DNA from: an uncultured beta proteobacterium
GTDB taxonomy: Bacteria > Pseudomonadota > Gammaproteobacteria > Burkholderiales > SG8-41
Assembly: GCA_963804885.1 (NCBI GenBank)
Contig: CAWDSF010000018.1
Span: forward strand, 218,717-242,716
Direction: 5' to 3'
DNA length: 24,000 nt
Shown here: piece after piece, positions 2,286 through 23,536 of the stretch
Position numbering within the stretch: position 1 is the first letter of the stretch
Layout of the letters: each line of letters starts with the position of its first letter
The notes under the pieces: model-generated
What the model was told of the DNA's origin: nothing
The model's database searches: none
The model's input: the letters and a program-made list of their open reading frames with translations, nothing else
Position numbers and translations under genes: made by a program

Positions 2286-2287
2286 TC

Positions 2288-2303
2288 AACGCGCGCGTTT
2301 TCA
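2288..2303. terminator. possible weak bidirectional terminator between convergent genes
   Basis: Perfect 12-bp GC-rich palindrome AACGCGCGCGTT (2288-2299) runs into a T tract (TTTT through 2301). It starts 3 nt after the stop of the 1416..2285 gene and faces the 3' end of the minus-strand gene. The stem is short and the loop minimal, so confidence is low. Confidence 0.3.
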
Positions 2304-2331
2304 GCACCATCCGTCGCGACCTGCCAATCAG

Positions 2332-2874: not shown

Positions 2875-2960
2875 GGACAACCTCCTGCGTTAAAGCGTAT
2901 TGCTTTTTCGAGCATCGCGCCGTCGCTACCTTCGCAATTGACGGATATCGTGAACGCCAA

Positions 2961-2995
2961 TCTTTACGGCTTTTTTATATCCGCGTGACGATAAT
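2961..2995 (+). promoter_or_regulatory. putative OmpR/PhoB-family (KdpE-like) direct-repeat box plus -10 element upstream of the orphan kdpD-like gene
   Basis: TCTTTACGGCT (2961-2971) and TTTTTATATCC (2972-2982) are 11-bp-phased direct repeats. A 7-nt spacer precedes GATAAT (2990-2995). The geometry is the same as at 4000-4034, with 21/35 identical positions in an ungapped hand alignment. Confidence 0.4.
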
Positions 2996-3027
2996 GATGG
3001 CTGCTAATACAGGCGTCAAGGCAGAGG

Positions 3028-3882: not shown

Positions 3883-3999
3883 CTGCGGCGACAAAAGCCC
3901 CCGTACGTTGCTTGCGGTGCAGCCGGTTCGACTTCTTCAGTGGCGCGCCACTATGCCGCCGCCATGCGCTCCTCTTGAGCCAATTCAAGCTGTGCAATC

Positions 4000-4034
4000 T
4001 TTTTACGCGATTTTTATGCGCCTGCGCATATATT
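4000..4034 (+). promoter_or_regulatory. putative KdpE operator (11-bp direct repeats) plus -10 element of the kdp operon promoter
   Basis: TTTTTACGCGA (4000-4010) and TTTTTATGCGC (4011-4021) are followed by a 7-nt spacer and TATATT (4029-4034). From memory the half-sites resemble the E. coli KdpE site (T-rich TTTTTAYAC repeats phased by 11 bp). The box sits in place of a -35, as with PhoB pho boxes. Confidence 0.55.
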
Positions 4035-4076
4035 GATGCCTGTTGATTTCCAGGACTTCTCTCGGGAGAAAACGCA

Positions 4077-4169
4077 ATGGACATCCTTTATATCGGTTTG
4101 ATCGTCGGTTTCGTGGCCGCCAGCATCGGCCTTGCGTACTACTGCGAACGCCTGCGGAGGCCGCAATGA
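4077..4169 (+). CDS. unannotated 30-codon single-pass membrane micropeptide ORF, translationally coupled to kdpF
   Basis: Hand translation gives MDILYIGLIVGFVAASIGLAYYCERLRRPQ*. A GGGAGA SD (4064-4069) lies 7-8 nt upstream of the ATG. Its TGA (4167-4169) overlaps the kdpF ATG (4166-4168) as ATGA. It has a 20-residue hydrophobic core with a basic C-tail. It is too short for the ORF track. Confidence 0.45.
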   Translation: MDILYIGLIVGFVAASIGLAYYCERLRRPQ

Positions 4170-4255
4170 GCTGGATATACATCTTGAGCGGTGTTCTCGC
4201 CGCCGCGATCTTTGTTTACCTCGTGATTGCGCTGTTGTATCCGGAGAAATTCTGA
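4166..4255 (+). CDS. kdpF: K+-transporting ATPase subunit F
   Basis: 29 aa, MSWIYILSGVLAAAIFVYLVIALLYPEKF. Size, hydrophobicity and position immediately before kdpA are typical of KdpF. GGAGG SD lies 5 nt upstream. Its stop overlaps the kdpA ATG (TGATG). Confidence 0.8.
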   Translation: MSWIYILSGVLAAAIFVYLVIALLYPEKF

Positions 4256-6063: not shown

Positions 6064-6108
6064 CCGGCCGCCATGCCCAATATCTGGAATAGCTGGAGTC
6101 CCCACAAT

Positions 6109-8211
6109 ATGAGTACATCCTACGTAGTGCCTGCACCGGTAATCGAGCACGCCGCGCCGCGCGCGCTCGTGACGCGCAGCATATTCAAGCAGGCGCTGGT
6201 CGATGCGTTCCTGAAGCTCGCACCGCAGCAGCAGTGGAAGAACCCGGTGATGTTCGTCGTCTATCTGGGCAGTTTCCTGACGACGATACTCTGGGTGCAG
6301 GCGTTGACCGGCCAGGGCGAAGCCTCGTCGGGTTTCATTCTCGCGGTCACCCTGTGGCTGTGGTTCACGGTGCTGTTCGCCAACTTCGCCGAAGCCATCG
6401 CGGAAGGGCGCAGCAAGGCGCAGGCTGATTCTTTGCGCGCGGCCAAGCGCGATACGACGGCTAAAAAGCTGGCGGCCGCCGACCGTCATGCCGCGGTGAC
6501 CAAAGTCAACGCGACGATGCTGCGCAAGGGCGATACCTATCTCGTCGAGCAGGGCGATTTCATCCCGGCCGACGGAGAAGTGATCGTCGGGGTCGCGTCC
6601 GTCGACGAGTCGGCGATCACCGGCGAGTCGGCCCCCGTCATTCGCGAAGCGGGCGGCGACTTTTCTTCGGTCACCGGCGGCACGCGCGTGCTGTCGGACT
6701 GGCTGGTCGTGCGGGTGACGACCAATCCGGGCGAATCGTTCCTCGATCGCATGATCTCGATGGTCGAAAGCGCGCGCCGGCAGAAGACGCCGAACGAAAT
6801 CGCGCTTACGATCCTGCTCGTCAAGCTGACGCTGGTGTTTCTGTTCGCCACCGTGACGCTGCTGCCGTTTTCGATTTACGGCGTCGAGGTGACGAAGTCG
6901 GGCAACCCGATCACGATCACCGTGCTTGTCGCATTGCTGGTCTGCCTGATTCCGACGACGATCGGCGGCTTGCTGTCGGCGATCGGACTTGCGGGCATCG
7001 GCCGGATGCTGCGAGCCAATGTGATTGCTACGTCGGGTCGCGCGGTGGAGGCGGCGGGCGACGTCGACGTGCTGCTGCTCGACAAAACCGGCACGATCAC
7101 GCTCGGCAACCGGCAGGCCTCCGCATTCCTGAGCGCTCACGGTGTGACCGAGCAGGAGCTCGCCGATGCGGCGCAGCTCTCGTCATTGCCGGATGGCACA
7201 CCCGAAGGCCGCTCGATCGTCGTGCTGGCGAAACAGAAATTCAACATGCGCGAACGCGACATCGTCGCGCTGGGCGCCACCTTCGTGCCGTTTTCCGCGC
7301 AGTCACGCATGAGCGGCGTGAATTTCCAGGGCCGCGAGATCCGCAAAGGCGCGGCCGACGCGATTCGCCAGTACGTAACGGCGATGGGCGCCAAGTTTCC
7401 CGATGAGGTCAGCGCGCTGGTCGACAGCGTCGCGCGCCGCGGCAGCACTCCGCTCGTGGTTGCGGAAGGCCCGCGCGTGCTTGGCGTAATCGAATTGAAG
7501 GACATCGTCAAAGGCGGCATCAAGGAGCGTTTCGCGGAATTGCGCCGCATGGGCATCCGCACCGTGATGATTACCGGCGACAACCGCCTCACCGCGGCGG
7601 CGATTGCAGCGGAGGCGGGAGTCGATGACTTTCTCGCGGAAGCCACGCCTGAAGCAAAGCTCAAATTGATCCGCGAAAGCCAGGCGCAGGGGCGGCTCGT
7701 CGCGATGACGGGCGACGGCACCAACGACGCGCCGGCGCTTGCGCAGGCCGACGTCGCGGTGGCCATGAATACCGGCACCCAGGCAGCCAAAGAAGCGGGC
7801 AACATGGTGGATCTCGATTCGAATCCGACCAAGCTGATCGAGATCGTCGAAACCGGCAAGCAATTGCTGATCACGCGCGGCTCGCTGACGACGTTCTCGA
7901 TCGCCAACGACGTCGCCAAGTACTTCGCGATCATTCCGGCCGCGTTTGCGACGACGTATCCGCAGCTCAACGCGCTGAACGTGATGCATCTTGCCACGCC
8001 GAACAGCGCGATCCTGGCGGCGGTGATTTTCAACGCGCTCATCATTCCGGCACTGATTCCGCTCGCGTTGCGCGGCGTCAAATATCGCGCGGTCGGCGCG
8101 GCGGTGCTGTTGCGCGACAACCTGCTCATCTACGGCCTTGGCGGCGTGATCGTGCCGTTCATCGGCATCAAGCTGATCGACATGCTGCTCGTCGTGCTGG
8201 GCTTGATCTGA
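6109..8211 (+). CDS. kdpB: K+-transporting P-type ATPase subunit B
   Basis: P-type ATPase motifs DKTGTIT (phosphorylation site), MITGDN and [19 protein letters not shown]. 700 aa from the ATG at 6109, which has GGAG 11 nt upstream. The ORF-track start at 6073 is a possible alternative. Confidence 0.95.
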
Positions 8212-8245
8212 CGCTCAACGAATTAAAGACAAAGGACCACCAATC

Positions 8246-8818
8246 ATGTTTGCCGAATTCAGACCCGCATTAGTCATGCTGATCCTACTGACCGTTTTAA
8301 CCGGCGGCATCTATCCCGCCTCGTAACGGGCATCGCGCAATTCGTTTTCCCTGCGACAGGCCAACGGCAGCCTCATCGAGCAGAACGGCAAGGCCGTCGG
8401 TTCCGCGCTGGTCGGACAGCCTTTTTCGGATCCGAAGCATTTCTGGTCGCGCCCGTCGGGAACTTCGCCGTATCCGAACAATGCGAGTGCTTCGAGCGGA
8501 TCCAACCAGGGTCCGTTGAATCCAGCTCTGAAAGAAGCCGTCGAAGGGCGCATCAAGGCTTTGCGTGAAGCAGATCCCAACAACAGGACGCCGGTACCGG
8601 TCGATCTCGTGACGGCGTCAGGAAGCGGACTCGATCCGCATATCTCGCCCGCTGCTGCCGAATACCAGGTCAATCGGGTGGCGAAGGCCCGCGGAATCGA
8701 TCCCGCGCGGGTGAGAGCCCTTGTGGCAGAATCGACGCAGGGACGGCAACTTGGATTTCTTGGAGAACTGCGGGTTAACGTGCTCGAACTCAATCTTGCG
8801 CTCGATCGTGCCGAATAG
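8246..8818 (+). pseudogene. kdpC: kdpC disrupted by two compensating 1-nt frameshifts that create an in-frame TAA (pseudogene or sequence error)
   Basis: The ATG at 8246 gives MFAEFRPALVMLILLTVLTGGIYPAS, then TAA at 8324-8326. The same frame resumes KdpC-like sequence from 8354 ([31 protein letters not shown]...[23 protein letters not shown]...[10 protein letters not shown]) to the stop at 8818. The missing conserved block [10 protein letters not shown] is encoded at 8323-8352 in another frame. Total length (190 codons) matches KdpC. Confidence 0.85.
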
Positions 8819-8847
8819 CTTTGATCAAGCAGGGGCGCTGTCCTGAG

Positions 8848-11598
8848 ATGGAACAGCGTCCCGATCCCGATGCGCTGCTGGCGAAAGTCCAGCGTGAGGA
8901 GGCCAGGCAACGCCGTGGCAAGCTGAAAGTGTTTTTCGGCGCCGCTGCGGGCGTGGGCAAAACCTATGCGATGCTGTCGGAGGCGCGCGAGAAGCGTGCC
9001 GAAGGCTGCGACGTCGTTGTCGGCATAGTCGAGACGCATGGCCGCGCGGAAACGGTCGCGATGGCCGAAGGTCTCGAGCTCCTGCCGCCGCGTGTCGTCG
9101 ATTATCGCGGCGCGCAAATCCGCGAATTCGATCTCGACGGCGCACTGAAGCGACGGCCGACGCTGATTCTCGTCGACGAGCTCGCGCACACGAATGCCGA
9201 GGGCTCGCGCCATCCGAAGCGCTGGAACGACGTCGAGGAACTGCTCGACAGCGGCATCGACGTCTACACGACGCTCAACGTGCAGCACCTCGAAAGCCTC
9301 AACGACATCATCGGCGGCATTACCCAGATCCGCGTCTGGGAGACGATTCCCGACACGATCTTCGAACGCGCGGATGAGGTCGAGCTCGTCGACCTGCCGC
9401 CCGACGACCTGCTCGAGCGCCTGCGCGAAGGCAAGGTGTACCTGCCGCAGCAGGCCGAGCGCGCGATCCGCAACTTCTTCCGCAAGGGCAATCTGATTGC
9501 GCTGCGCGAGCTCGCATTGCGGCGAACCGCGGAGCGCGTTGACGCGCAGATGCGCGATTACCGCGAGGACCAGGCGATTCGCGACGTCTGGCGCGCGGGC
9601 GAGCGCGTGCTCGTGTGCATCGGGCCGAACCCTCTTGCATCGCGGCTGATTCGCGCGGGCAAGCGGCTTGCCACGTCGCTGCACGCGGACTGGATCGTCG
9701 CTTACGTCGAGACACCGCAATTGCAGCGGCTGCCGGCGGAGCGGCGCGACCGGATTCTGGATTATCTGCACCTCGCAGAGGAACTCGGCGCGGAAACGAT
9801 GACGCTGTCCGGCCACTCGATGAGCGAGGCCATTCTCGACTGCGCGCACGACAAGAACGTGACGAAGATCGTGCTCGGCAAGCCGTCGCGCGCCGGCTGG
9901 CGGCGCTGGGTTCTCGGCAGCGTTGTCGACGAGGTCGTGCGCGAGGCGCATGATTTCGACGTCTATCTGCTGGCGTGCGACAAGGATATCGATGCACCGA
10001 CGCTGCCGGACACGTCGCTGCTCCTGCGCAGCCGCGCCTATCTGGGGATTTCCGAAAGCGAGCACCGCAAAAAGCGCTGGCCGGGCTATCTCTGGAGCGC
10101 GGGCGTCACTGCCGCGATCACGTCGCTCTCCGCGTTCGCGTTCAGCTTTCTGGAGCTCGTGAACCTCGTGATGCTGTATCTGCTCGGCGTGATGTACATC
10201 GCGACGCGCTTCGGCCGCGGCCCTTCGGTGCTCGCGTCGCTGCTGTCGGTCGCGGCGTTCGACTTCTTTTTCGTGCCGCCGCGCTATTCGTTTGCCGTGA
10301 CGGACGTGCAATACCTGGTCACGTTCGCCGTAATGCTTGCCGTCGGATTGATCGTAAGCACGCTCACCGTCGATTTGCGCTCGCAGGCCAAAGTTTCCCA
10401 GCATCGCGCGCGCCGCGCCGGCGTGCTCTATACGTTCACGCGCGAGCTCGGGCTCACCCAGACCGAGGCCGAAGTCTGCGAGGTTGCAGTCAAGCACATC
10501 GGCGAGGAGTTCGAAGGGCAGAGCGTGGTGCTGCTGCCCGATCACGAAGGGCGCATTCATTATCCACGCGCGCAAAGCATCCAGTTTTCGTTTCATGGCA
10601 GCGACCTCGGCGTTGCGCAATGGGTGTTCGATCATGGCCGCATCGCGGGGCGCGGCACGGACACGCTGCCCGGCACCGAAGGCGTGTACTTGCCGATGAC
10701 CGATGCGGGCGGCACGATCGGCGTGCTGGCGCTGCTGCCGATCAACCTGCGACGCGTGTTCCTGCCCGAGCAGAAACGCCTGATCGACACGTTCATCGCG
10801 CAAATCGTGCAGGGCCTCGGGCGCGTGCGCCTGACGCGCGATGCGCAGGCCGCGAAAGTCAAAGCGGAGACCGAAAGCCTGCGCAATTCGCTGTTGAGTG
10901 CAATTTCTCATGACTTTCGCACGCCGCTCGCTTCGATCGTCGGCGCATCGAGCAGCCTCATCGAAGATTCTGCGCGGCTCTCGGACCCGGCCCGGCTCGA
11001 TCTGGGCAGGACGATTTACGAGGAAGCCCAGCGCATGACGAAGCTCGCCAACAACCTGCTCGACATGGCGCGGCTCGAGGCGGGCAACGTGAGGTTGAAC
11101 CGGCAATGGTGCCCGCTCGAAGAAATCATCGGCGGCGTACTCACCCGTTTGCACGCGCGGCTCGGACGCCATCCGGTTTCGATCAAGCTGCCGCCGGGCC
11201 TGCCGCTCGTGCATGTCGATCCGGTAATGATCGAGCAGGTGTTCGAGAACCTGATTGAAAATGCGGTCAAATATACGCCGCCCGGCACCCCCTTCGAAAT
11301 CGGCGGCGAAGCAGTCGACGGCAAGATGGCCTATTGGGTCGCCGACCGCGGCGACGGGCTTCCGTCGGGCAAGGAGGACATGCTGTTCGAGAAGTTTTAT
11401 CGCGGTGCGAAGGAAGGCGCGCAAAGCGGAGTGGGGTTGGGGCTGACGATCTGCCGCGCCATCGTCGAGGCGCACGGCGGCACCATACGCGCGGAAAACC
11501 GGGAAGGCGGCGGCGCGCGTTTTACCTTTACGATTCCGCTCACCGGCGAGCCGCCGAAAATCGCGTCCGAAGAAGAGCAACTCGCCGCATCGTCATGA
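8848..11598 (+). CDS. kdpD: sensor histidine kinase KdpD (full length)
   Basis: N-terminal KdpD domain with Walker-A-like GAAAGVGKTYAM, then a Usp-like region, 4 TM helices, a GAF-like domain, H-box SHDFRTPL, N-box ENLIENAVKYTP and G-boxes DRGDGLP/GVGLGLTICR. ATG at 8848 (MEQRPDPDALLAK); the track start at 8821 is a TTG extension. Confidence 0.95.
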   Translation: MEQRPDPDALLAKVQREEARQRRGKLKVFFGAAAGVGKTYAMLSEAREKRAEGCDVVVGIVETHGRAETVAMAEGLELLPPRVVDYRGAQIREFDLDGALKRRPTLILVDELAHTNAEGSRHPKRWNDVEELLDSGIDVYTTLNVQHLESLNDIIGGITQIRVWETIPDTIFERADEVELVDLPPDDLLERLREGKVYLPQQAERAIRNFFRKGNLIALRELALRRTAERVDAQMRDYREDQAIRDVWRAGERVLVCIGPNPLASRLIRAGKRLATSLHADWIVAYVETPQLQRLPAERRDRILDYLHLAEELGAETMTLSGHSMSEAILDCAHDKNVTKIVLGKPSRAGWRRWVLGSVVDEVVREAHDFDVYLLACDKDIDAPTLPDTSLLLRSRAYLGISESEHRKKRWPGYLWSAGVTAAITSLSAFAFSFLELVNLVMLYLLGVMYIATRFGRGPSVLASLLSVAAFDFFFVPPRYSFAVTDVQYLVTFAVMLAVGLIVSTLTVDLRSQAKVSQHRARRAGVLYTFTRELGLTQTEAEVCEVAVKHIGEEFEGQSVVLLPDHEGRIHYPRAQSIQFSFHGSDLGVAQWVFDHGRIAGRGTDTLPGTEGVYLPMTDAGGTIGVLALLPINLRRVFLPEQKRLIDTFIAQIVQGLGRVRLTRDAQAAKVKAETESLRNSLLSAISHDFRTPLASIVGASSSLIEDSARLSDPARLDLGRTIYEEAQRMTKLANNLLDMARLEAGNVRLNRQWCPLEEIIGGVLTRLHARLGRHPVSIKLPPGLPLVHVDPVMIEQVFENLIENAVKYTPPGTPFEIGGEAVDGKMAYWVADRGDGLPSGKEDMLFEKFYRGAKEGAQSGVGLGLTICRAIVEAHGGTIRAENREGGGARFTFTIPLTGEPPKIASEEEQLAASS

Positions 11599-12299
11599 GC
11601 CAGCCGCATCCAGTCATCGTTGTCATCGAAGACGATCCGCAGATCAGGCGCTTTCTGCGCACGGGGCTGGAAGCGCATGGATTCGAGATACACGAGGCGG
11701 AAACGGGCAAGCTCGGCATGATACTCGCGGCGACGCGCAAACCCGACCTCGTAATTCTCGACCTCGGGCTGCCTGATATTGACGGGCTTGAAGTCGTGAA
11801 AAAACTGCGAGAGTGGACGTCGCGGCCGGTGATCATTCTCTCGGCGCGCAATATGGAAACCGACAAGGTCGCGGCGCTCGATACCGGCGCCGACGATTAC
11901 CTGACCAAGCCGTTCGGGATGGACGAGTTGCTCGCGCGCATCCGCGTCGCGCTGCGCCACGCCGCGCAGCCGGAGCAGGCCGATGCGGGGCAGGTTTTCA
12001 ACTCGGGCAATCTCAAAGTCGATCTCGCGCAGCGCCGGGTATACCGCGACGGAGAGGAAGTCCATCTGACGCCGATCGAATACCGGCTGCTGACCACGCT
12101 GATCAAGCATGCCGGCAAGGTGCTGACGCACCGGCAGTTGCTGCTCGAGGTGTGGGGGCCGAGTTACGTCGAGCACAACCACTATCTGCGCATTTACATG
12201 GGCTGCCTGCGCCACAAGCTGGAAGCGGAGCCGGCCCGCCCCAAACTGCTGCTGACTGAAGCGGGAACTGGCTACCGGCTTGCGGTTGACGACGATTGA
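11595..12299 (+). CDS. kdpE: OmpR-family response regulator KdpE
   Basis: Receiver domain (VIVVIEDDPQIRRFL, DLVILDLGLPDIDG, KPF) plus winged-helix output (LTPIEYRLLTTL, GTGYRL). The ATG overlaps the kdpD stop (ATGA at 11595-11598). 234 aa. The track start at 11334 is an extension inside kdpD. Confidence 0.95.
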   Translation: MSQPHPVIVVIEDDPQIRRFLRTGLEAHGFEIHEAETGKLGMILAATRKPDLVILDLGLPDIDGLEVVKKLREWTSRPVIILSARNMETDKVAALDTGADDYLTKPFGMDELLARIRVALRHAAQPEQADAGQVFNSGNLKVDLAQRRVYRDGEEVHLTPIEYRLLTTLIKHAGKVLTHRQLLLEVWGPSYVEHNHYLRIYMGCLRHKLEAEPARPKLLLTEAGTGYRLAVDDD

Positions 12300-12350
12300 A
12301 GGCCGATTATCGGGCGGCATCACGGGCTGCAAAAAGAATAAGAGGAACCG

Positions 12351-14231
12351 ATGGATCAGGTGCATGAAGCGAAGCAAACCCGTTCTGCGCTCGCGCTCGC
12401 GGCGCTCGGCATTGTCTATGGCGACATCGGCACGAGCCCCCTCTATGCGGCCAAGGAGGTCTTCAATCCCAATCACGGCATCCCGTTCTCCACGGCCAAC
12501 GTAATCGGCGGCGTGTCGGCGATATTCTGGGCGCTGATGATCGTCGTGTCGGTCAAATACGTGATCCTGATCATGCGCGCCGACAACCGGAGCGAAGGCG
12601 GCATCATGGCGCTGCTCGCGCTCGCGTCGGCTTCCGTTAAAGAACGGGCGGGGTGGGGCGGCCCGCTTGCGCTGCTCGGCGTGTTCGGCGCCGCGCTCTT
12701 TTACGGCGACGGCGTGATTACGCCGGCGATTTCGGTGTTGAGCGCGATCGAAGGCCTCGAAGTAGCGACGCCCGCGTTGAAGCCGTATGTAATTCCGCTG
12801 ACGGTCGGCGTGCTGGTTGCGCTGTTCGCGCTGCAGCGCCGCGGCACTGCGACCGTGGGCGCGCTGTTCGGGCCGGTCATGATCGTGTGGTTTGCGGTGC
12901 TCGGATCCATCGGCATCGTCAACATCGTGCGCGCCCCGCAGATTCTCGAGGCCGTGAATCCCGTGCACGCCTATGCATTCTTGACGCAACACGGCTTTGC
13001 CTCGTTCACCGTGCTGGGGGCGGTGTTTCTGGCCGTTACCGGCGCGGAAGCGTTGTATGCGGACATGGGGCATTTCGGCAAGAGCCCGATCCGGTTCGCA
13101 TGGTTCGCGTGCGTGCTGCCCGGCCTGACGCTCAATTATTTCGGCCAAGGTGCGTTGCTGATAACGAATCCGCGGGCGGTCGAAAACCCGTTTTACCTGA
13201 TGTTCCCGGATTGGGCGCTGTTGCCGATGGTCGCGCTCGCCACCGCAGCGACGGTGATCGCGTCGCAGGCGGTGATTTCCGGCACGTATTCGATGACGCG
13301 CCAGGCGATCCAGCTGGGCTTCTTGCCGCGCACCAACATCGTCCAGACCTCGGACACCGAGTTCGGTCAAATCTATATTCCAGCCATCAACTGGACGTTG
13401 CTCGTCGTCATCGTTGCCGCGGTCATCGGATTCGGCTCCTCATCGAGTCTCGCGTCCGCGTACGGGCTCGCCGTTTCCGGCACGATGCTGATCACGACGC
13501 TGCTCACTTTCTTCGTGATCCGCTTCGGCTGGCGATACAGCCTGCCGGTGTGCTTGCTGGCCACCGGCTTCTTCCTGATCGTGGACTGCGCGTTTTTCGC
13601 CGCGAATCTGGTCAAGTTCGTCGAAGGCGGCTGGTTTCCGCTGGCGATGGGCGGGCTCATCTTTACGGTCATGATGACGTGGCGAGACGGCCGCGATATC
13701 CTGTTTCGTCACTTGCGCAAGTCTTCGCTGCAGCTCGAAGCGTTCCTGAAAATGCTGTTTGACGATCCGCCGCATCGCGTTGCGGGCACTGCAGTGTTCC
13801 TGATCGGCGATCCGGACACGGTGCCGCACGCGCTTTTGCACAATCTGAAGCACAACAAGGTGCTGCACGAACGCGTGATATTTCTGACGGTGATCGTGCG
13901 CGACGTGCCGCGCGTGCCATTCGAAGAGCGCATCGTCGTCGAAACGCTCGGCAACTGCTGCTTCCGGTTAAAGCTCCTTTACGGTTTCAAGGACGTGCCC
14001 GACGTGCCGCAAACGCTCGCGCTGTGCAAGGTGGGCGGCGCCGGCATCGACCTGCTCGAAACGTCGTTTTTCGTGAGCCGGGAAACCGTCATTCCGACGC
14101 CGGGCGGCGGCATGGCGCTGTGGCGCGACCGGCTGTTCGCGGCGATGTCGCGCAACGCCGGCAGCACTTTCGACTACTTCTGCATACCGGCGAACCGGGT
14201 GATCGAGCTCGGCACGCAGATCGAGATTTGA
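12351..14231 (+). CDS. kup: KUP/HAK/KT-family potassium uptake transporter
   Basis: 626 aa. Signature N-terminus LAALGIVYGDIGTSPLYA, GGIMALLAL and FYGDGVITPAISVLSA, about 12 TM segments, and a C-terminal cytoplasmic domain ending VIELGTQIEI. AAGAGGA SD upstream. Confidence 0.95.
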   Translation: MDQVHEAKQTRSALALAALGIVYGDIGTSPLYAAKEVFNPNHGIPFSTANVIGGVSAIFWALMIVVSVKYVILIMRADNRSEGGIMALLALASASVKERAGWGGPLALLGVFGAALFYGDGVITPAISVLSAIEGLEVATPALKPYVIPLTVGVLVALFALQRRGTATVGALFGPVMIVWFAVLGSIGIVNIVRAPQILEAVNPVHAYAFLTQHGFASFTVLGAVFLAVTGAEALYADMGHFGKSPIRFAWFACVLPGLTLNYFGQGALLITNPRAVENPFYLMFPDWALLPMVALATAATVIASQAVISGTYSMTRQAIQLGFLPRTNIVQTSDTEFGQIYIPAINWTLLVVIVAAVIGFGSSSSLASAYGLAVSGTMLITTLLTFFVIRFGWRYSLPVCLLATGFFLIVDCAFFAANLVKFVEGGWFPLAMGGLIFTVMMTWRDGRDILFRHLRKSSLQLEAFLKMLFDDPPHRVAGTAVFLIGDPDTVPHALLHNLKHNKVLHERVIFLTVIVRDVPRVPFEERIVVETLGNCCFRLKLLYGFKDVPDVPQTLALCKVGGAGIDLLETSFFVSRETVIPTPGGGMALWRDRLFAAMSRNAGSTFDYFCIPANRVIELGTQIEI

Positions 14232-15300: not shown

Positions 15301-16911
15301 TCAGTTCACGAAAAACGCGGCCGGCAGCGCTTCCACCACGTAACGGCGGTTCAGCAACTGGCTTTCGGCGAGGTCCATCGCAACGGGGTTATTGGCGTCC
15401 GTAATTGCGCGCCCGTACGCGAGCAGGCGCTGGTCGAGCGCGATGGGGTTGCGCAGCATCGCAGCGATTACGGGCAGGTGCCGCGCGGGCACGTGATTGA
15501 GGTCGTCGCCGGCGGGGCTCGGCAAGGCGGAGGCGGAGGCTACGATAAAGCTGTTGATATGCGGGGCAAGGCCGTAATCCGGCCGGTAGAGCGTGACGTA
15601 TTGCAGCTCGCTTTTGAGCGTCGTCAGGAAGTGCGCATAGGCGCGCGGCTTGTCGAGGTCCGCAAACGTGTTGAATACCGCGATGCCATCCCGACCCAGG
15701 CACCGTTTTAAATCACGGAAGAAGTCTCGCGTCACCAGATAGTCGGGCACGCCGTCGCCGTGAAAAAGGTCGACGACTACGATGTCGTAGCCGCTCTCGC
15801 ATGTGCGCAAGTAGGTGCGCGCATCGGCCTGGACGGCGTGGACTTTGCCTGGATCGAAGCCGAACACTTCAGTGGCGGCGCGCAATGAGGCGGAGTCGAT
15901 GTCGACGGTGGTGACGTCGACGCCGCGGCCGGCCAGCCGCATCGGCACCATGCCCGCGCCGATGCCGAGCACGAGCGCTTTGCGCAGTTCCGGACGGTAG
16001 GAAAAAGATAGCGCCTCGAGCGCATAGGTGTACATCGAGAGCGAACGGTTGCTGGCGCCGACGACGTTCTGCACGAGACCGTCCTGGAAATACATGCGGG
16101 TAAACGGCTCGTTGTCGCGCGGACCGCTTTTCAGGACTTTGACGGTGCCGAACGACGAGCGGTAGACCGTTTCTATGCTCCAGTTGGTGCCGCCGTACGC
16201 GGCGGGCCACAGGCGGTCGGTATAGGCGCGCGAGCCGGCGAGCAATGCCAACGACGCCGCCAGTGCAACCACTGACGTGATCGTCAGGCGCTTCCGCTGG
16301 GCAATACGGAGCGACGAGCCGAACAACATCACGAGCGGCAATGCCGCGAGCACAGCCGCCACAGTCAACGATGCGGCGAAATTGCTCATATACAGAATAA
16401 GGCCGAATGCCGTCACGATGACACCCGCGACCGAGCCCAGCGTGCTGATGAAAAATACGCGGCCAGCGCCGGCGTCGGCCAGCTCGCCGCGCGAAGCAGA
16501 TTGCCGCAACAAAATCGCGACCAGCAGAGGGTTCATAGCGGACGTTACGAACAGCGGGACAAACAGCAGCACGACGCACGCGATGAATGCGCCCAGCACC
16601 AGATCGAATTGCGCGAGCCGGTGGAACAGGTACGGATAAACGAGGCAGGCGGCGACGATCGCCAGCGCTGCAACGGCGGGCATGCGCGCAAACTGGTAGG
16701 CGAGTTTTTCCGGCGCCGGTGGATGGTTGCCCTTGCCCGCGGCCAGCTGGCCGCCGCGCCAATAACCCGCCGCCAGCGACACCAGCGTAATCGACAGGAT
16801 GCCGCTCCAGATATAAAGGCTCACACCGAAGTACGGCGTCAGGATGCGCGAGGCCAGCAGCTCGAGCGCGAGGATCGCGCCGCCGGTAACAAAAATGATA
16901 GTGGGCAGCAT
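15301..16911 (-). CDS. membrane-fused spermidine synthase-like (aminopropyl/methyltransferase-fold) protein
   Basis: 536 aa. The N-terminal ~215 aa contain about 7-8 hydrophobic helices. The C-terminal Rossmann domain has LVLGIGAGMVP (motif I), VTTVDID, and VVVDLFHGDGVPDYLVTRDFFRDLKRCLGRDGIAVFN, which resembles the SpeE D-x-x-D...LFT..F region. Confidence 0.8.
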   Translation of the reverse strand: MLPTIIFVTGGAILALELLASRILTPYFGVSLYIWSGILSITLVSLAAGYWRGGQLAAGKGNHPPAPEKLAYQFARMPAVAALAIVAACLVYPYLFHRLAQFDLVLGAFIACVVLLFVPLFVTSAMNPLLVAILLRQSASRGELADAGAGRVFFISTLGSVAGVIVTAFGLILYMSNFAASLTVAAVLAALPLVMLFGSSLRIAQRKRLTITSVVALAASLALLAGSRAYTDRLWPAAYGGTNWSIETVYRSSFGTVKVLKSGPRDNEPFTRMYFQDGLVQNVVGASNRSLSMYTYALEALSFSYRPELRKALVLGIGAGMVPMRLAGRGVDVTTVDIDSASLRAATEVFGFDPGKVHAVQADARTYLRTCESGYDIVVVDLFHGDGVPDYLVTRDFFRDLKRCLGRDGIAVFNTFADLDKPRAYAHFLTTLKSELQYVTLYRPDYGLAPHINSFIVASASALPSPAGDDLNHVPARHLPVIAAMLRNPIALDQRLLAYGRAITDANNPVAMDLAESQLLNRRYVVEALPAAFFVN

Positions 16912-17076
16912 GTCGTGGCGGATAAGCGGTCGGGTATAATGACGGCGCGTTCAGGCAGGCGCGAACGCATCGGATTGAAATTGGTTGTGCGCGAAATCTA
17001 CCAGAGTTCAAACATTGACGCGAGTTCGCAGCGCAAGGGCGGCCGGTTGCGCGCAATTTTTGAACGGGAGGACAGG

Positions 17077-17955
17077 ATGAAGAGCTTAACAAGCGGGTTC
17101 CTGCGCATCGCGGCATTGGCGCTGATGGCGGCATGCGCGAGCGCTGCGCTGGGGGCCGCGTCCAGCGTGCCCTACGTCCCGACACCGCAGGTTGTCGTCG
17201 ATCGCATGCTGCAAATGGGCAAAATAACCCCGCAGGACTATGTCATCGACCTGGGATCGGGCGACGGCCGCATCGTCATCACCGCCGCGCAGAAGTACGG
17301 CGCGCGCGGATTCGGCGTCGACCTGAATCCGGTGCGCATCAAGGAAAGCACCGAGAACGCGGCAAAGGCGGGGGTCAGCGACCGCGTGACGTTCTACGAG
17401 CGCAACCTGTTCGAGACGGATTTGTCGCAGGCGACCGTGATCACGATGTATCTGCTGCCGCGCGTCAACCTCGATTTGCGGCCGAAGATATTGGAATTGA
17501 AGCCCGGCACGCGCATCTTGTCGCACGATTTTTCGATGGACGAGTGGAAAGCCGACGAGGCGGTGAACCTCGACATACAGGACAAATACGGCGTCGGTGC
17601 TGGTTCCGGCACCAGCACGATTTACTTTTGGGTGGTGCCGGCGCGCGTCACGGGGCCGTGGCAATGGCAGTCGACAGTCGCCGGCAAGCCGCAGAATTAT
17701 GAGATGGTGCTCGAGCAGCAATTCCAGATGATCGGCGGCACGGTACGCGTCGGCGGGCGCAGCACGAAGCTGCAGGACGCCAAGCTGCGCGGCGACCAGA
17801 TCAGCGGCAATTTCACCGTCGACGTCAATGGCAGCCCGCTCAAGCACGAACTCGCGGGCCGCGTGAATGGCTCCAGCATCGAGGGCAGCGTCACGCTGAC
17901 CGGTAACCGCATGCAGGGACAGTATGAATGGAACGCCGCGCGCGGCGCCAAGTGA
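17077..17955 (+). CDS. signal-peptide aKMT/FAM173-like methyltransferase with conserved C-domain (paralogue 2)
   Basis: ATG at 17077 with GGGAGGA SD. N-terminus MKSLTSGFLRIAALALMAACASAALGAAS. Motifs VPYVPTPQVVVDRML, DLGSGDGRIVITAAQKYGARGFGVDL, MYLLPRVNLDLRPKILELKPGTRILSHDF and FWVVPARVTGPWQWQ. The track start at 16501 is an extension antisense to the neighbouring gene. Confidence 0.85.
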   Translation: MKSLTSGFLRIAALALMAACASAALGAASSVPYVPTPQVVVDRMLQMGKITPQDYVIDLGSGDGRIVITAAQKYGARGFGVDLNPVRIKESTENAAKAGVSDRVTFYERNLFETDLSQATVITMYLLPRVNLDLRPKILELKPGTRILSHDFSMDEWKADEAVNLDIQDKYGVGAGSGTSTIYFWVVPARVTGPWQWQSTVAGKPQNYEMVLEQQFQMIGGTVRVGGRSTKLQDAKLRGDQISGNFTVDVNGSPLKHELAGRVNGSSIEGSVTLTGNRMQGQYEWNAARGAK

Positions 17956-17983: not shown

Positions 17984-18901
17984 ATGAAGTCAATTTCAGC
18001 AATCGCGGCGGGTTTGGCCCTGCTGGTTACGTGCGCGGTCAGCGCGCAGGATTTCGGCGATACGCCTTACGTGCAAACGCCCCAGAACGTGGTCGACAAG
18101 ATGTTGCAGATCGCCAAGGTGGGGCCCGCCGACTATGTGATCGATCTGGGGTCCGGCGACGGCCGCATGATCATCACGGCGGCGCAGAAATACGGCGCGC
18201 GCGGTTTTGGCGTCGATCTCGACAAGCGGCTCGTGCAGCTTGCGAACAAGCGCGCGGCGACTGCAGGCGTAGCCGATCGCGCCGTGTTCTACGAGCGCGA
18301 TCTCTACGAAACCGATCTGACTGCCGCGAGCGTGGTCACGATTTATCTGCTGCCCGAAGTCAACCTGATGGTGCGGCCGCGCCTGCTGGCGACGCTGAAA
18401 CCCGGCACCCGCGTGGTGGCGCACGATTACGACATGGGCGAATGGAAGCCCGACGAGCAACTGGTGATGGATGCGCCCGACAAACCGGTCGGCCGCGACA
18501 AGAAGAGCAAAGTCTTCTATTGGATCGTGCCGGCCAACGCCGCGGGCAAATGGCGGTGGGAAATGCCGGTGGCGGGCAAGCCCGCCGTCTTCACCCTTAA
18601 CATCGCGCAGAATTTTCAGGCGATCAGCGGCAACGTCACCAGCGACGGCGTTACCTGGCCGCTCGAAAACGCGCGGCTGCGCGGCGAGGACATCAGCTTC
18701 ACCGTCAACGATCCGCGCGACAAGACCCGCTATGACTTCAGCGGCCACATCGCCCCCAAAGGGATTACGGGTGCAGTGCAGGTGGCCGGCGTGCGTGCGC
18801 AGAGGCAACTCGAGTGGCAGGCGGCGCGCACCGAGCCCGGTTATCCCGCCCACGCTGCGCTAAAGAAGCCGACCCTGCAAGAACTGCAGCTGGTGCACTA
18901 A
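17984..18901 (+). CDS. signal-peptide aKMT/FAM173-like methyltransferase with conserved C-domain (paralogue 3)
   Basis: N-terminus MKSISAIAAGLALLVTCAVSA|QD. Motifs TPYVQTPQNVVDKML, DLGSGDGRMIITAAQKYGARGFGVDL, IYLLPEVNLMVRP, LKPGTRVVAHDY and YWIVPANAAGKWRWE. It has a unique ~25-aa C-terminal tail (TEPGYPAHAALKKPTLQELQLVH). Confidence 0.85.
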   Translation: MKSISAIAAGLALLVTCAVSAQDFGDTPYVQTPQNVVDKMLQIAKVGPADYVIDLGSGDGRMIITAAQKYGARGFGVDLDKRLVQLANKRAATAGVADRAVFYERDLYETDLTAASVVTIYLLPEVNLMVRPRLLATLKPGTRVVAHDYDMGEWKPDEQLVMDAPDKPVGRDKKSKVFYWIVPANAAGKWRWEMPVAGKPAVFTLNIAQNFQAISGNVTSDGVTWPLENARLRGEDISFTVNDPRDKTRYDFSGHIAPKGITGAVQVAGVRAQRQLEWQAARTEPGYPAHAALKKPTLQELQLVH

Positions 18902-19741
18902 ATGGCGTGGCGCGCCCGCCTTGTCATCGCTGCGGCTGTCGTCTGTTTCGCCACGCCGTCGGCCCGCGCCCAGTTCAGCTATGACGTCCCGTTTGTCCCG
19001 ACGCCCTACGTCGTGGTCGAGGAGATGCTGCGGCTCGCGAAGGTCGGCGCCGACGATTTCGTGATGGACCTCGGCTCCGGCGACGGCCGCATCCTGATTG
19101 CCGCCGCCCGCAAGTTCGGCGCACGCGGCGTAGGCGTCGACCTCGACCCCGATCGCATCGAAGAGAGCCTTTACAGCGCTCAGCTGCAGGGTGTCAGCGA
19201 CCGCGTCACGTTCCTTCAGCAGGACCTCTTCAAGTTCGATTTAAGCCCGGCGACGGTGATCACGATGTATCTGCTGCCATCAGTTAACATGAAGCTGCGC
19301 TCGCGGCTCTACGACTTGAAGCCCGGCACGCGCATCGTGGCGCACGATTTCGACCTCGAAGACTGGCAGCCGGACCAGAAGTCGACCGTGCGCAAGAACG
19401 TGTTTCTCTGGATAGTGCCGGCAAAGGCCGGTGGCCGCTGGCGCACCACCGTGGCGCTGCCCGCGGGCGAGCGCACCTACGATATCGAAATTCGCCAGAA
19501 ATTCCAGGAAATCGACGGCCTCGCGCGCTACGACAAGAAAGTGGCGGGCCTGTGGAATGCGAAATTGAGCGGAGAGCGCATCAATTTCGTGATCGTCGAC
19601 GACAGCGGATCGCTCGACAGCAATCTTTATTTTGACGGCAAAGTCTCCGCCGATGGCATGGAAGGTACGATAGTGCGCGGCGTCGGCGCCGACCAGAAAC
19701 AAATCCCGTGGCGGGCGACGCGCCTGCCCGAGGCGAAATGA
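18902..19741 (+). CDS. signal-peptide aKMT/FAM173-like methyltransferase with conserved C-domain (paralogue 4)
   Basis: The ATG directly abuts the preceding TAA. N-terminus MAWRARLVIAAAVVCFATPSARA|QF. Motifs VPFVPTPYVVVEEML, DLGSGDGRILIAAARKFGARGVGVDL, MYLLPSVNMKLRS, LKPGTRIVAHDF and LWIVPAKAGGRWRT. It has the shortest linker of the family. Confidence 0.85.
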   Translation: MAWRARLVIAAAVVCFATPSARAQFSYDVPFVPTPYVVVEEMLRLAKVGADDFVMDLGSGDGRILIAAARKFGARGVGVDLDPDRIEESLYSAQLQGVSDRVTFLQQDLFKFDLSPATVITMYLLPSVNMKLRSRLYDLKPGTRIVAHDFDLEDWQPDQKSTVRKNVFLWIVPAKAGGRWRTTVALPAGERTYDIEIRQKFQEIDGLARYDKKVAGLWNAKLSGERINFVIVDDSGSLDSNLYFDGKVSADGMEGTIVRGVGADQKQIPWRATRLPEAK

Positions 19742-19742
19742 C

Positions 19743-20633
19743 ATGACGTGCTCGATCGACAGGGCAAGAGCGGCCTTGCTGGCGATGGCGCTGTGTGTGC
19801 TCGGTCTGGCGGGTTCAGTTCGCGCGCAGCAGCAACCCGATGTTCCCTACGTGCAGACGCCAAGGAGCGTCGTTGAGGCTATGCTCGATGCAGGGCGGGT
19901 TACAGCCAACGATTATGTGATCGACCTGGGCTCCGGCGACGGCCGCCTCGTCATTGCGGCGAGCCGGCGAGGCGCCCGCGCCACCGGCGTCGAGCTCGAT
20001 GCCAATCTGGTCGCGACCGCGACCCGCGAAGCCGCGCGTAGCGGGGAGGGCGGAAAAGCGAACTTCGTCAACGCCAACCTGTTCACGTTCGATTTCAGCA
20101 AGGCGACGGTGCTGACGATGTACTTGCTGCCGCATATCAACCTCGATCTGCGCCCGCGCATATTAAGCGGGCTGCGTCCCGGCACGCGTGTGGTGTCGCA
20201 CGATTTCGATATGGGAAAATGGCGGCCCGATCTGCGCCGTGAGATAGCGGTGCCCGACAAGGTCTATGGCCCACCGGTCAGCCAGGTCTATATGTGGTAC
20301 GTTCCGGCGAACGTCGCGGGCAAGTGGCAATGGCGCCTGCCGGTGGGCGATGTCGCCGTCCGCCACGAAGTGACGTTCCGGCAGACTTTCCAGCAATTGA
20401 CGGGCGATGCCGCCATCGAGGGCGGCAGCGCGACGATCGAAGGCGCGAAGTTGCAAGGCGACGCGATCGCATTCACGCTGGTGCATGCCAGCGCCGGACG
20501 CAAAGTGGCATACGAATTCAGCGGCCGTGTGGACGGCGACAAAATAGCCGGCAGCGTCAAGACCGGCGGCGACGACAAAACCTACGACTGGCAGGCGACG
20601 CGATTTGCGCGCGGCCAGATGAGCATCGAATGA
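19743..20633 (+). CDS. signal-peptide aKMT/FAM173-like methyltransferase with conserved C-domain (paralogue 5)
   Basis: 1-nt gap after the previous stop. N-terminus MTCSIDRARAALLAMALCVLGLAGSVRA|QQ. Motifs VPYVQTPRSVVEAML, DLGSGDGRLVIAASRRGARATGVEL, MYLLPHINLDLRPRIL, LRPGTRVVSHDF and MWYVPANVAGKWQWR. Confidence 0.85.
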   Translation: MTCSIDRARAALLAMALCVLGLAGSVRAQQQPDVPYVQTPRSVVEAMLDAGRVTANDYVIDLGSGDGRLVIAASRRGARATGVELDANLVATATREAARSGEGGKANFVNANLFTFDFSKATVLTMYLLPHINLDLRPRILSGLRPGTRVVSHDFDMGKWRPDLRREIAVPDKVYGPPVSQVYMWYVPANVAGKWQWRLPVGDVAVRHEVTFRQTFQQLTGDAAIEGGSATIEGAKLQGDAIAFTLVHASAGRKVAYEFSGRVDGDKIAGSVKTGGDDKTYDWQATRFARGQMSIE

Positions 20634-20652: not shown

Positions 20653-21552
20653 ATGACGCAACTGAAACATCTGTTCGGCGCTGTCCTCATGCTGGCGCTG
20701 ATCATGCCCGTGCTTGCGCTTGCCCAGGATGAGAAGGAGCGCGGCGTCGGCAACGTCGTTTACGTGCCGACACCCCAGGTTGTCGTCGATGAAATGCTGC
20801 GCATGGCAAAAGTAGGGCCAGCCGATTTTGTCATCGACCTGGGGTCGGGCGACGGCCGCATGGTGAGGACCGCCGCGAAGAAATTCGGCGCGCGCGGGTT
20901 TGGCGTCGATCTCTCCGACGACCTGCTGCGCGAAAGCAATGCGCTCGCCCTCTCCGACGGCATCGCCGACCGCGCGCGCTTCATCAAGGAGGACCTGTTC
21001 GAGACCGACTTGACCAAGGCCACGGTCATCACGAGCTACCTGTTGCCGGAAATGAACCAGAAACTGCGGCCGAAGATTCTGAATCTCAAGCCGGGCACGC
21101 GCGTGGTCGCGCACGACTACCACATGGGCGAGTGGCCGTCGGACGAGAACAAGGAAATCATCGTGCCGGAAAAGAAGGTGGGCGTCGCCGGCCGCAGCTA
21201 TGTTTACCTGTGGATAGTGCCGGCCAAAGTCGGCGGGCGGTGGCAGGCGCAGATCAATTCTCCCGCGCATCCCGGCGGACTCGAGCTCGAGTTCGTGCAG
21301 AAATTTCAGAAGCTGGAAGGCAGCGCCAAAAGCGGCGGCCAGACTGTCGCGCTGCTGGCGCCGAAAATCGAAGCCGATCAGCTGAGTTTCGCGCTCTTCA
21401 CCAAGCCCGGCGATAGCGCAACACGCCATCAGTTCACCGGCGCTGTCAAAGGCGACACCATCGAAGGGCTCGTCAAAGTTGGCGACGGCGCGAAACAGCA
21501 GCAGTTGCCGTGGACGGCTAAGGTGGTGCAACGCGTGGCGGGGCCGCAATGA
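20653..21552 (+). CDS. signal-peptide aKMT/FAM173-like methyltransferase with conserved C-domain (paralogue 6)
   Basis: GGAGAAG SD upstream. N-terminus MTQLKHLFGAVLMLALIMPVLALA|QD. Motifs VVYVPTPQVVVDEML, DLGSGDGRMVRTAAKKFGARGFGVDL, SYLLPEMNQKLRPKIL, LKPGTRVVAHDY and LWIVPAKVGGRWQAQ. Its stop overlaps the start of the permease. Confidence 0.85.
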   Translation: MTQLKHLFGAVLMLALIMPVLALAQDEKERGVGNVVYVPTPQVVVDEMLRMAKVGPADFVIDLGSGDGRMVRTAAKKFGARGFGVDLSDDLLRESNALALSDGIADRARFIKEDLFETDLTKATVITSYLLPEMNQKLRPKILNLKPGTRVVAHDYHMGEWPSDENKEIIVPEKKVGVAGRSYVYLWIVPAKVGGRWQAQINSPAHPGGLELEFVQKFQKLEGSAKSGGQTVALLAPKIEADQLSFALFTKPGDSATRHQFTGAVKGDTIEGLVKVGDGAKQQQLPWTAKVVQRVAGPQ

Positions 21553-22904: not shown

Positions 22905-22954
22905 TTCTTGCTAAACGTTATTTGAACCCGAACGACAGAAGAGACAAAAAAATC

Positions 22955-23536
22955 GTGGAAATAAATCTCAGGAAGCTGCTGACTGCCGCGGTGTTGGGCG
23001 CGCTGGCCTCAAGCCCCGCATTTGCCAAGGAATGCAAAGGCGTTACTTTTCCCGATCAAGTGCAGAGCGGAGGGACGACCTTGGTGTTGAACGGCCTTGG
23101 ACTGCGCCAGGCGAGCGCATTCAAAGTGAGCGTCTATGTTGCCGGTTTGTACGTTGCGCAGACGTCTACCGACGGGAATGCGATTCTGGCTTCAAATTCG
23201 CGCAAGGAGCTCGTGCTTCAATTCGTGCGGGACGTCGGCGCCAGCGATCTGAGCAAGGCATGGCAGGAGGGATTCGAGTTGACCGCGAAAACGCAATTGC
23301 CTGCGCTCAATGAGCGAATTGAAAAACTCAAAGGCTGGATGTCCGCAATGAAAAACGGCGAGCGCCTCATTTTTGTTGCGAAACAGGGCGGCGGCATCGA
23401 AGTAAACGTGAACGGAACCGTCAAAGGCACAATCGACGGTGATGACTTCGCAAAAGCATTTCTTTCAATGTGGCTGGGCGCAACACCTGTCAATCCGGCG
23501 ATGAAGGCCGGGTTGTTGGGTAGCGCTTGCGCATGA
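22955..23536 (+). CDS. exported chalcone-isomerase-like (CHI-fold) protein
   Basis: I chose the GTG at 22955 (VEINLRKLLTAAVLGALASSPAFA|KE, a signal peptide). LVLNGLGLRQASAFKVSVYVAGLYV and FAKAFLSMWLG match the bacterial chalcone-isomerase-like family pattern (from memory). The start is uncertain; the track begins at TTG 22922. Confidence 0.65.
   Translation: MEINLRKLLTAAVLGALASSPAFAKECKGVTFPDQVQSGGTTLVLNGLGLRQASAFKVSVYVAGLYVAQTSTDGNAILASNSRKELVLQFVRDVGASDLSKAWQEGFELTAKTQLPALNERIEKLKGWMSAMKNGERLIFVAKQGGGIEVNVNGTVKGTIDGDDFAKAFLSMWLGATPVNPAMKAGLLGSACA

Follow-up and report, generated by a model that had tools for sequence, protein, structure and literature searches.

A conserved gene cluster of uncultured Burkholderiales encodes predicted Sec-exported relatives of aKMT and FAM173 methyltransferases beside two candidate membrane partners

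Chemistry dependent on S-adenosylmethionine (SAM) is generally regarded as cytoplasmic in bacteria, and in the literature we searched no bacterial periplasmic SAM-dependent methyltransferase and no bacterial SAM exporter is described, nor is there anything relevant on extracytoplasmic or lipoprotein methyltransferases. Several described systems nevertheless offer points of comparison. The methyltransferase aKMT is a distant relative of the mitochondrial proteins FAM173A and FAM173B, which have an N-terminal hydrophobic segment (PMC9006661), and methylation in the plant Golgi depends on dedicated Golgi SAM transporters (bioRxiv 10.1101/2021.07.06.451061). The fungal protein NHMT (AN4663), an endoplasmic reticulum (ER) protein that combines seven transmembrane segments (7-TM) with a SpeE-like domain, has been shown experimentally to methylate His1 of secreted lytic polysaccharide monooxygenases (LPMOs); its loss of an acidic residue was argued by Batth et al. 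to mean that it uses SAM and not decarboxylated SAM, and SAM availability in the ER was raised as a possible limit (PMC10349129). Here we analyze a 24,000-nucleotide stretch of DNA (hereafter, the window) from an uncultured beta proteobacterium (GenBank assembly GCA_963804885.1, contig CAWDSF010000018.1, positions 218,717 to 242,716 of the forward strand) that encodes six paralogous proteins, P1 to P6. In each, a methyltransferase domain of the seven-beta-strand, aKMT/FAM173-like type lies between a Sec-type signal peptide and an all-beta C-terminal domain. We put forward, with an even chance of being right, that P1-P6 are Sec-exported SAM-dependent methyltransferases of the periplasm or further out, and that they form a module with two membrane proteins, one of which would supply SAM.

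A motif search in all six frames of the window located six genes of this layout (Table 1), whose products share 41-47% pairwise identity. An initial annotation of this DNA, made from the sequence without database searches, had described a set of six paralogues. All six are present, but only P2-P6 lie in tandem, closely packed into an array whose spacers measure 28, 0, 1 and 19 nt, and P1 lies 13 kb upstream of that array. The array opens with P2, whose initial 31 codons span positions 17077-17170 and whose ATG start is preceded 6-11 nt upstream by a GGGAGG Shine-Dalgarno sequence. The 292-aa product read from this start is the version conserved among orthologues; a 338-aa form extended upstream (16501-17076), given by some gene callers (P0001 and relatives), was rejected as its extension has no homology support. 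The automatic annotations in the source records are inconsistent, naming these proteins 'class I SAM-dependent methyltransferase', 'phospholipid N-methyltransferase', 'RsmD' or 'hypothetical protein'.

Signal-peptide and topology calls were obtained by rule-based scoring combined with comparative evidence, not with SignalP or DeepTMHMM. A homologue search (E < 1e-5) returned at least 8000 homologues, which gives a minimum size for the family, and the comparative set comprised 79 related loci, mostly from metagenome-assembled genomes (MAGs) of uncultured Betaproteobacteria/Burkholderiales from groundwater, soil and lakes. Under these rules all six proteins carry the Sec-type leader assigned to them initially, with one or two Lys or Arg residues, an uncharged stretch of 13-23 residues (maximum 10-residue Kyte-Doolittle mean 2.55-3.16) and a small-x-small site; in P2, for instance, K2 and R10 precede the uncharged stretch. 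A (P/V)(Y/F)V(P/Q)TP motif, which reads PYVPTP in P2, begins 4-11 residues past the proposed cleavage site in each protein. The proposed cleavage strings (the arrow marks the scissile bond) are all found in the sequence, as TAARA↓AD, ACASA↓AL, AVSA↓QD, SARA↓QF, SVRA↓QQ and ALA↓QD in P1 to P6. For P2 the string is indeed there, but the choice of ASA↓AL as its site is less secure: cleavage after residue 27, at LGA↓ASS, is at least equally favoured by the orthologues, because their alignment reads ALA↓AEPSVPYV. Leaders of P2 orthologues end, in general form, as AxA↓AEPSVPYV.

The same organization recurs throughout the family. A hydrophobic core lies upstream of a PYVPTP-type motif in 250 of 254 copies from the 79 loci, an AxA-like site occurs about four residues ahead of the motif in all 111 scored database homologues, and the N-terminus of every full-length sequence among the best 120 homologues is hydrophobic, variable and terminated by AxA, typically as ALA↓AEPSVPYVPTPQ. 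The hallmarks of Sec export and signal peptidase I cleavage (a positive n-region, an h-region of about 10-18 residues and small residues at -3 and -1) were found in the six paralogues and in 111/111 homologues. Pairwise identity between paralogues is 30% in the leader as compared with 54% in the catalytic domain, and within the leader it is the core that varies in sequence, while the AxA↓(A/Q)(D/E) site, preceded by a P or G helix breaker, is conserved. Export by twin-arginine translocation (Tat) was rejected as a general route: no Tat motif had been noticed initially, and indeed no twin-arginine consensus or Tat-like motif is found in the 111 homologues, with an RR pair of any kind in nine of them and in none of the six window paralogues. 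Lipoprotein sorting was likewise rejected as a general route, a lipobox-like pattern being present in just 10 of the 111 homologues; P2, alone among the six, fits a loose lipobox (LMAAC).

These leaders also bear on whether the exported proteins remain attached to the membrane, through an uncleaved signal anchor (N-terminus in, C-terminus out) or, in the case of P2, through lipidation at Cys20. Such attachment would fix the enzymes to the inner membrane's outer face or to a leaflet of a membrane, and the paradox of a SAM-dependent domain on the far side of that membrane would stay. We consider this unlikely. The uncharged stretches of 20-23 residues in P2, P3 and P6 are long enough to be read as anchors, and the FAM173 relatives do retain an N-terminal TM segment (PMC9006661), but the conserved cleavage site with its helix breakers, the variable core and the frequent occurrence of cysteine in leaders and not in mature domains all run counter to an anchor; the uncleaved anchor of unexpected topology that the initial annotation had entertained is disfavoured. 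Lipidation could draw on the P2 lipobox and on the unrelated methyltransferase family of the neighbourhood, whose members are lipoproteins, and it is the rarity of the lipobox among homologues that speaks against it.

A cytoplasmic catalytic domain, by means of an inverted (N-out) anchor or of an internal GTG start at PYVPTP yielding a leaderless isoform, is the least probable of the alternatives we weighed. P2 has a GTG at codon 31, immediately ahead of PYVPTP; across the family the Val codon at this position is GTG in 72% of copies as against a background of 52%; and cytoplasmic relatives begin exactly there, as in Protein Data Bank (PDB) entry 5BXY (158 aa, MVPYVPTP). The Val inside the motif is, however, even more enriched in GTG (83%), which points to codon context and not to a start signal, and tetramers resembling a Shine-Dalgarno sequence precede the position in just 39 of 113 copies. 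Every in-frame start that would take away the leader also encroaches on the conserved PYVPTP motif, the only candidates being Val GTG codons within or beside it, in agreement with the initial judgement that a downstream start is improbable. A domain facing the cytoplasm would, moreover, leave unexplained the leader itself, its positive N-region, the loss of cysteine and the exported relatives of the C-terminal domain.

Placement of the catalytic domain outside the cytoplasm is supported by three independent lines of evidence: cysteine content, exported relatives of the C-terminal domain and the AlphaFold model of the leader. Family-wide counts were made on 222 members drawn from the 79 loci. 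No cysteine is present in 214 of these 222 mature domains (about 265 aa each; 0.025% Cys), as against 97 of 222 leaders that contain one and 0.3-1.2% Cys in neighbouring proteins, and in P1-P5 every cysteine is located in the leader. Such loss of cysteine from the mature domain is a signature of an oxidising compartment, where unpaired cysteines are expected to be avoided. Motif I likewise has no cysteine, reading DLGSGDG in the window family and DLGCGDG in cytoplasmic aKMT. In the AlphaFold model of P2 the leader forms a detached helix (residues 2-23) with a predicted local distance difference test score (pLDDT) of 59-65, joined by a linker (residues 25-29) that scores below 50.

The remaining line concerns the C-terminal domain, of about 105 aa with the pattern G-x-W-x-W ... 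W-x-A-x-R, for which Pfam yields no match; nothing credible was found there for stand-alone repeat proteins either. AlphaFold models it as a nine-stranded antiparallel beta structure (pLDDT 88), and its best Foldseek matches in the PDB, which are weak, are to fatty acid-binding protein (FABP) and other calycin/lipocalin-like folds (E 0.025, TM-score about 0.5). A profile built from the six copies finds 3849 cluster representatives, and its best matches are mostly not methyltransferases but proteins with 1-8 repeats of the domain. A classical signal peptide starts 85 of the 116 top matches that have no methyltransferase domain; in the other 31, many of which resemble fragments, no clear signal is seen. 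About 3800 cluster representatives make up this exported beta-barrel domain family, which has no annotation. Identity between paralogues is 32% in this domain as compared with 54% in the catalytic domain, a divergence that fits a role in substrate choice, and the domain probably selects the substrate. Taken with the leaders, the loss of cysteine and the AlphaFold model, these relatives lead us to predict that the methyltransferase domain of P1-P6 lies on the non-cytoplasmic side, as the initial annotation had anticipated from the positive-inside rule.

Pfam identifies the catalytic domain of P1-P6 through generic methyltransferase and DOT1 matches only. In NCBIfam all six match best to NF041081, a model of archaeal protein-lysine methyltransferases (E 3e-27 to 6e-37; 5.6e-37 for P2). 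Among solved structures, P2 matches 5BXY (158 aa, Salinibacter ruber) with E 1.8e-44 and Sulfolobus aKMT4 (5FA8, E 2.4e-38; 5FA8 and 5JWJ, about 1e-38). The alignment spans PYVPTP, DLGxGDG, GV(D/E), TM(Y/F)LL and SH(D/E)F, motifs that include columns invariant across the paralogues, and since 5BXY and aKMT4 begin at PYVPTP, the window proteins have acquired an N-terminal leader. The AlphaFold model of P2 (pLDDT 90.1, predicted TM-score 0.81) consists of the leader helix at 2-23, the linker at 25-29, a Rossmann domain and an all-beta portion at 193-289. Foldseek aligns this Rossmann domain with 5BXY and two aKMT4 crystal structures at target-normalised TM-scores of 0.89-0.92 and root-mean-square deviations of 1.4-2.1 A, and with the nuclear magnetic resonance (NMR) model 5JWJ at a TM-score of 0.83 (overall Foldseek E 3e-18 to 1e-15).

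The cofactor motifs are intact. DLGSGDG and GVD/GVE, reported initially for all six copies, are indeed present in each, and family-wide DLGSGDG is found in 220 of 222 members and the acidic motif II residue in 221 of 222, so that the argument for selection on cofactor binding is sound. Conservation extends to an SHD(F/Y)-like motif (220/222) and to T-x-YLLP (185/222).

The genes are embedded in a conserved cluster. The module order P1 (+), 7-TM gene (-), P2, P3, P4, P5, P6 (+) and amino-acid permease (+) is kept in about 40 genomes of uncultured Burkholderiales, even where protein identity drops to about 45%. The 7-TM gene occurs in 40 loci and the permease in 38, and hardly any locus long enough to include them lacks them. 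The best-matching paralogue follows one order in each locus, indicating that P1-P6 are separate orthologous groups and not recent duplicates, and flanking genes vary between lineages, so the core itself appears to be retained. P1 directly adjoins the 7-TM gene in most other genomes; in the window the two are split by a kdpABC-DE + kup island (4132-14231). This potassium island comprises genes for kdpA, kdpB, a kdpD sensor kinase, a kdpE-like response regulator and kup. HtpG, TctABC, an acyl-CoA-dehydrogenase-like gene and an ABC ATPase were considered as module members and rejected, each occurring in part of the loci, for which lineage synteny is the likelier explanation. Promoter and terminator consensus scans gave results at the level of shuffled sequence and are uninformative on operon limits. 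Between P3 and P4, many genomes encode one further paralogue, the seventh (L003:9712-10452, L005:9313-10095, L006:14483-15280 and about 12 other loci), which is about 41-52% identical to P4 and has no recognisable PYVPTP; no such copy is found in the window.

This arrangement weighs on the idea that the proteins are exported and then released, through a secretion system or vesicles, so as to act in another cell with the SAM of that cell. Secreted bacterial methyltransferases acting in host cells are documented in reviews, and the beta-barrel domain could bind a receptor. The hosts here, however, are free-living Burkholderiales of groundwater, soil and lakes; the array keeps its gene order and has one-to-one orthologues, unlike arsenals of effectors or toxins; the spacers of 0-28 nt leave no space for immunity genes; no secretion-system genes lie in the conserved neighbourhood; and the co-conserved 7-TM protein and permease would be left unexplained. 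We regard release as highly improbable, and a toxin/immunity array was rejected on account of the fixed orthologous order and short spacers.

The 7-TM gene is divergent from P2 and adjoins it in about 40 loci. Its product matches the NCBIfam 'fused MFS/spermidine synthase' model NF037959 (E 8.6e-48), and by hydropathy the window protein and 24 of 30 orthologues each have seven TM segments. Positive charge is concentrated behind TM2, TM4 and TM6, where each loop has 2-5 K/R residues as against 0-1 in the other loops, a bias that predicts an N-terminus inside and a C-terminal Rossmann domain outside. The glycine loop of this domain reads GIGAG in the window protein and GxGAG in 30/30 orthologues, in place of the GxG(D/E)G of spermidine synthases, and by analogy with NHMT the domain appears adapted to SAM rather than to decarboxylated SAM. 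The widespread 'fused MFS/spermidine synthase' family may accordingly consist of outward-facing methyltransferases like NHMT, and not of aminopropyltransferases.

The second partner, a permease of the LAT/SLC7 type, follows the last paralogue in 38 loci, and in the window its ATG overlaps the P6 stop codon by 4 nt (ATGA). It matches the LAT family model TIGR00911 (E 6.6e-54) and, more weakly, the YjeH model of methionine and branched-chain amino acid transporters, with scores below all curated cutoffs. Its nearest solved structures, aligned over the full length (E 3e-46 to 1e-36), are xCT, b0,+AT, y+LAT, LAT1 and the bacterial transporter 6F2G. LAT/SLC7 transporters are known as obligate exchangers of molecules with an alpha-amino-acid group, and SAM and S-adenosylhomocysteine (SAH) both carry this group. 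The permease is the best candidate carrier. We know of no member of the LAT/SLC7 group that transports SAM or SAH, and the yeast SAM permease Sam3 sits in a different branch of the APC superfamily. That the exchanger exports SAM and imports SAH is, in our estimate, doubtful.

The adjacency of the permease could also be read in the opposite sense, with P1-P6 as exported non-catalytic binding proteins that capture SAM, SAH, methylthioadenosine (MTA) or a related nucleoside or amino acid, and the permease as the importer. Conservation is strictest in the cofactor-binding motifs. On the other hand, T-x-YLLP and SHD(F/Y) lie beyond these motifs and are also conserved, six orthologous groups with diverging C-terminal domains suit differing substrates better than a single ligand, and to our knowledge APC-family permeases use no binding proteins. 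We find this very unlikely.

Returning to exported methyltransferases supplied with SAM from the cytoplasm, we infer cleavage, catalytic activity, substrate identity and the route of SAM supply along the following lines. P1-P6 would be exported by Sec and cleaved, most likely by signal peptidase I, and their aKMT/FAM173-type N-methyltransferase domain would then act with SAM in the periplasm or further out. On the model of aKMT and FAM173, the likeliest substrates would be amino groups of exported proteins, namely lysine side chains, with small hydrophobic or lipid-linked amines as the alternative suggested by the calycin-like barrel. SAM would cross the inner membrane via one of the two membrane proteins, the exchanger being the likelier, in which case the permease would work as a SAM-out/SAH-in antiporter. 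Of the ways in which the initial annotation had sought to reconcile export with cofactor use, a donor supplied outside the cytoplasm fits the conserved neighbourhood with its 7-TM protein and permease, and loading of the proteins before export is unlikely because the leaders are of the Sec type and lack a twin arginine. In its most complete form, the proposal is that of a dedicated periplasmic system of up to three unrelated families of exported SAM-dependent methyltransferases, in which six or seven aKMT-like paralogues, each with a substrate-binding barrel of its own, an outward-facing NHMT-like 7-TM methyltransferase and, in some genomes, a lipoprotein methyltransferase are fed by a LAT-type SAM/SAH antiporter; we advance it tentatively, as a possibility that we lean against.

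Several observations weigh against the proposal. In about 35 loci a P1-like gene stands alone, and neither a permease nor a 7-TM gene lies within 10 kb of it, and one Burkholderiales MAG locus (L040) has ten tandem family copies (2032-11875) with neither the 7-TM gene nor the LAT permease in 13.4 kb; the linked transporter is thus not always present. The permease is not tied to SAM specifically and could carry a substrate or product instead. Searched against Rfam at gathering thresholds, the whole window yielded no SAM riboswitch or other RNA element. The NF041081 scores of 95-127 bits fall below the curated cutoff of 200 and denote related proteins, not equivalogs, so that lysine specificity is an extrapolation, and the calycin-like fold, itself a weak match, could indicate a small hydrophobic substrate instead of protein lysine. 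The evidence is computational throughout, and the organisms are uncultured.

If true, the proposal would give bacteria their first SAM exporter and, for the first time, evidence of SAM-dependent protein modification in the bacterial periplasm. The cluster names specific candidates, the exchanger and the 7-TM protein, for the missing SAM-supply step, and makes testable the question of whether SAM is used outside the bacterial cytoplasm and how it gets there.

Table 1. Coordinates of the P1-P6 genes, their partners and related features in the 24,000-nt window.
Feature	Position	Strand	Basis or detail
P1, exported paralogue, 289 aa	1416-2285	+	Signal peptide 1416-1484, cleavage ARA↓AD
P2, exported aKMT-like methyltransferase (predicted), 292 aa	17077-17955	+	Open reading frame, ATG start, NF041081, PDB matches, AlphaFold
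P2 signal peptide, residues 1-23 or 1-27	17077-17157	+	Candidate sites ASA↓AL and LGA↓AS
P2 C-terminal all-beta domain, residues 187-292	17635-17952	+	AlphaFold; weak calycin/FABP-like fold
P3, exported paralogue, 305 aa	17984-18901	+	Signal peptide 17984-18046, cleavage VSA↓QD
P4, exported paralogue, 279 aa	18902-19741	+	Signal peptide 18902-18970, cleavage ARA↓QF
P5, exported paralogue, 296 aa	19743-20633	+	Signal peptide 19743-19826, cleavage VRA↓QQ
P6, exported paralogue, 299 aa	20653-21552	+	Signal peptide 20653-20724, cleavage ALA↓QD
7-TM protein fused to SpeE-like Rossmann domain, 536 aa	15301-16911	-	NCBIfam NF037959, hydropathy
LAT/SLC7-type APC permease, 451 aa	21549-22904	+	Pfam AA_permease_2, E 9e-48
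Unrelated class I methyltransferase, 3' part, 169 aa	2-511	+	Translation; cut by window start

Other genes of the neighbourhood also encode proteins with export signals. In 12 loci a homologue of the truncated class I methyltransferase at the window's start is encoded just upstream of P1, and each of the 11 whose N-terminus is complete has a lipoprotein signal peptide (e.g. LLGGC↓A); from these leaders the family is predicted to be a third extracytoplasmic methyltransferase family of the neighbourhood. A small exported protein is encoded upstream of P1 in 22 loci (e.g. L015:9627-9932 and L005:4343-4657), immediately so in about half of them; its mature form of about 80 aa has two conserved cysteines and no family match, and it was not found in the window, whose first letter lies past the position expected for it. 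A Chalcone_3 (chalcone-isomerase-like) protein with a signal peptide is encoded at 22922-23536 (+), 17 nt past the permease; with no counterpart in the 79 loci, its gene is probably not part of the module.

Compared with described systems, the catalytic domain is closest to aKMT/aKMT4 of Sulfolobus islandicus (5FA8, 5FAD, 5JWJ) and to 5BXY, with which it is homologous (E 1.8e-44 to 3.5e-37) at 42-49% identity over about 140-165 residues. Those proteins are cytoplasmic and leaderless single domains of about 160 aa, whereas each window protein is extended by a 21-28-aa signal peptide at one end and a beta-barrel domain of about 105 aa at the other, and has the Cys to Ser change in motif I. The comparison with FAM173 made in the initial annotation is apt, these proteins consisting of an N-terminal TM segment, a pre-methyltransferase segment and a methyltransferase domain, and FAM173A/ANT-KMT and FAM173B/ATPSc-KMT methylate membrane transport proteins (PMC9006661). 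They differ in that the TM domain is retained and aids targeting to the mitochondrion, a compartment known to import SAM; the window proteins have Sec signals that look cleavable, the opposite predicted orientation, with the domain outside, and an extra C-terminal domain.

The 7-TM protein resembles NHMT in architecture, both opening with a 7-TM domain of about 215-230 aa that leads into a SpeE-like seven-beta-strand domain, and both have lost the acidic residue of GxG(D/E)G, replaced by Ile in NHMT and by Ala in the bacterial protein. NHMT acts after signal-peptide removal, on the non-cytoplasmic side; homologues of its 7-TM domain were found by the authors of that study only in Pezizomycotina (PMC10349129). 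The likeness described here is one of architecture. With the plant Golgi, finally, the cluster would share its proposed logic, in which methyltransferase domains on the non-cytoplasmic side are paired with a dedicated SAM transporter. There, the setting is a eukaryotic organelle with transporters of the major facilitator superfamily and polysaccharide substrates, whereas here the candidate carrier is an APC permease of the LAT/SLC7 type.

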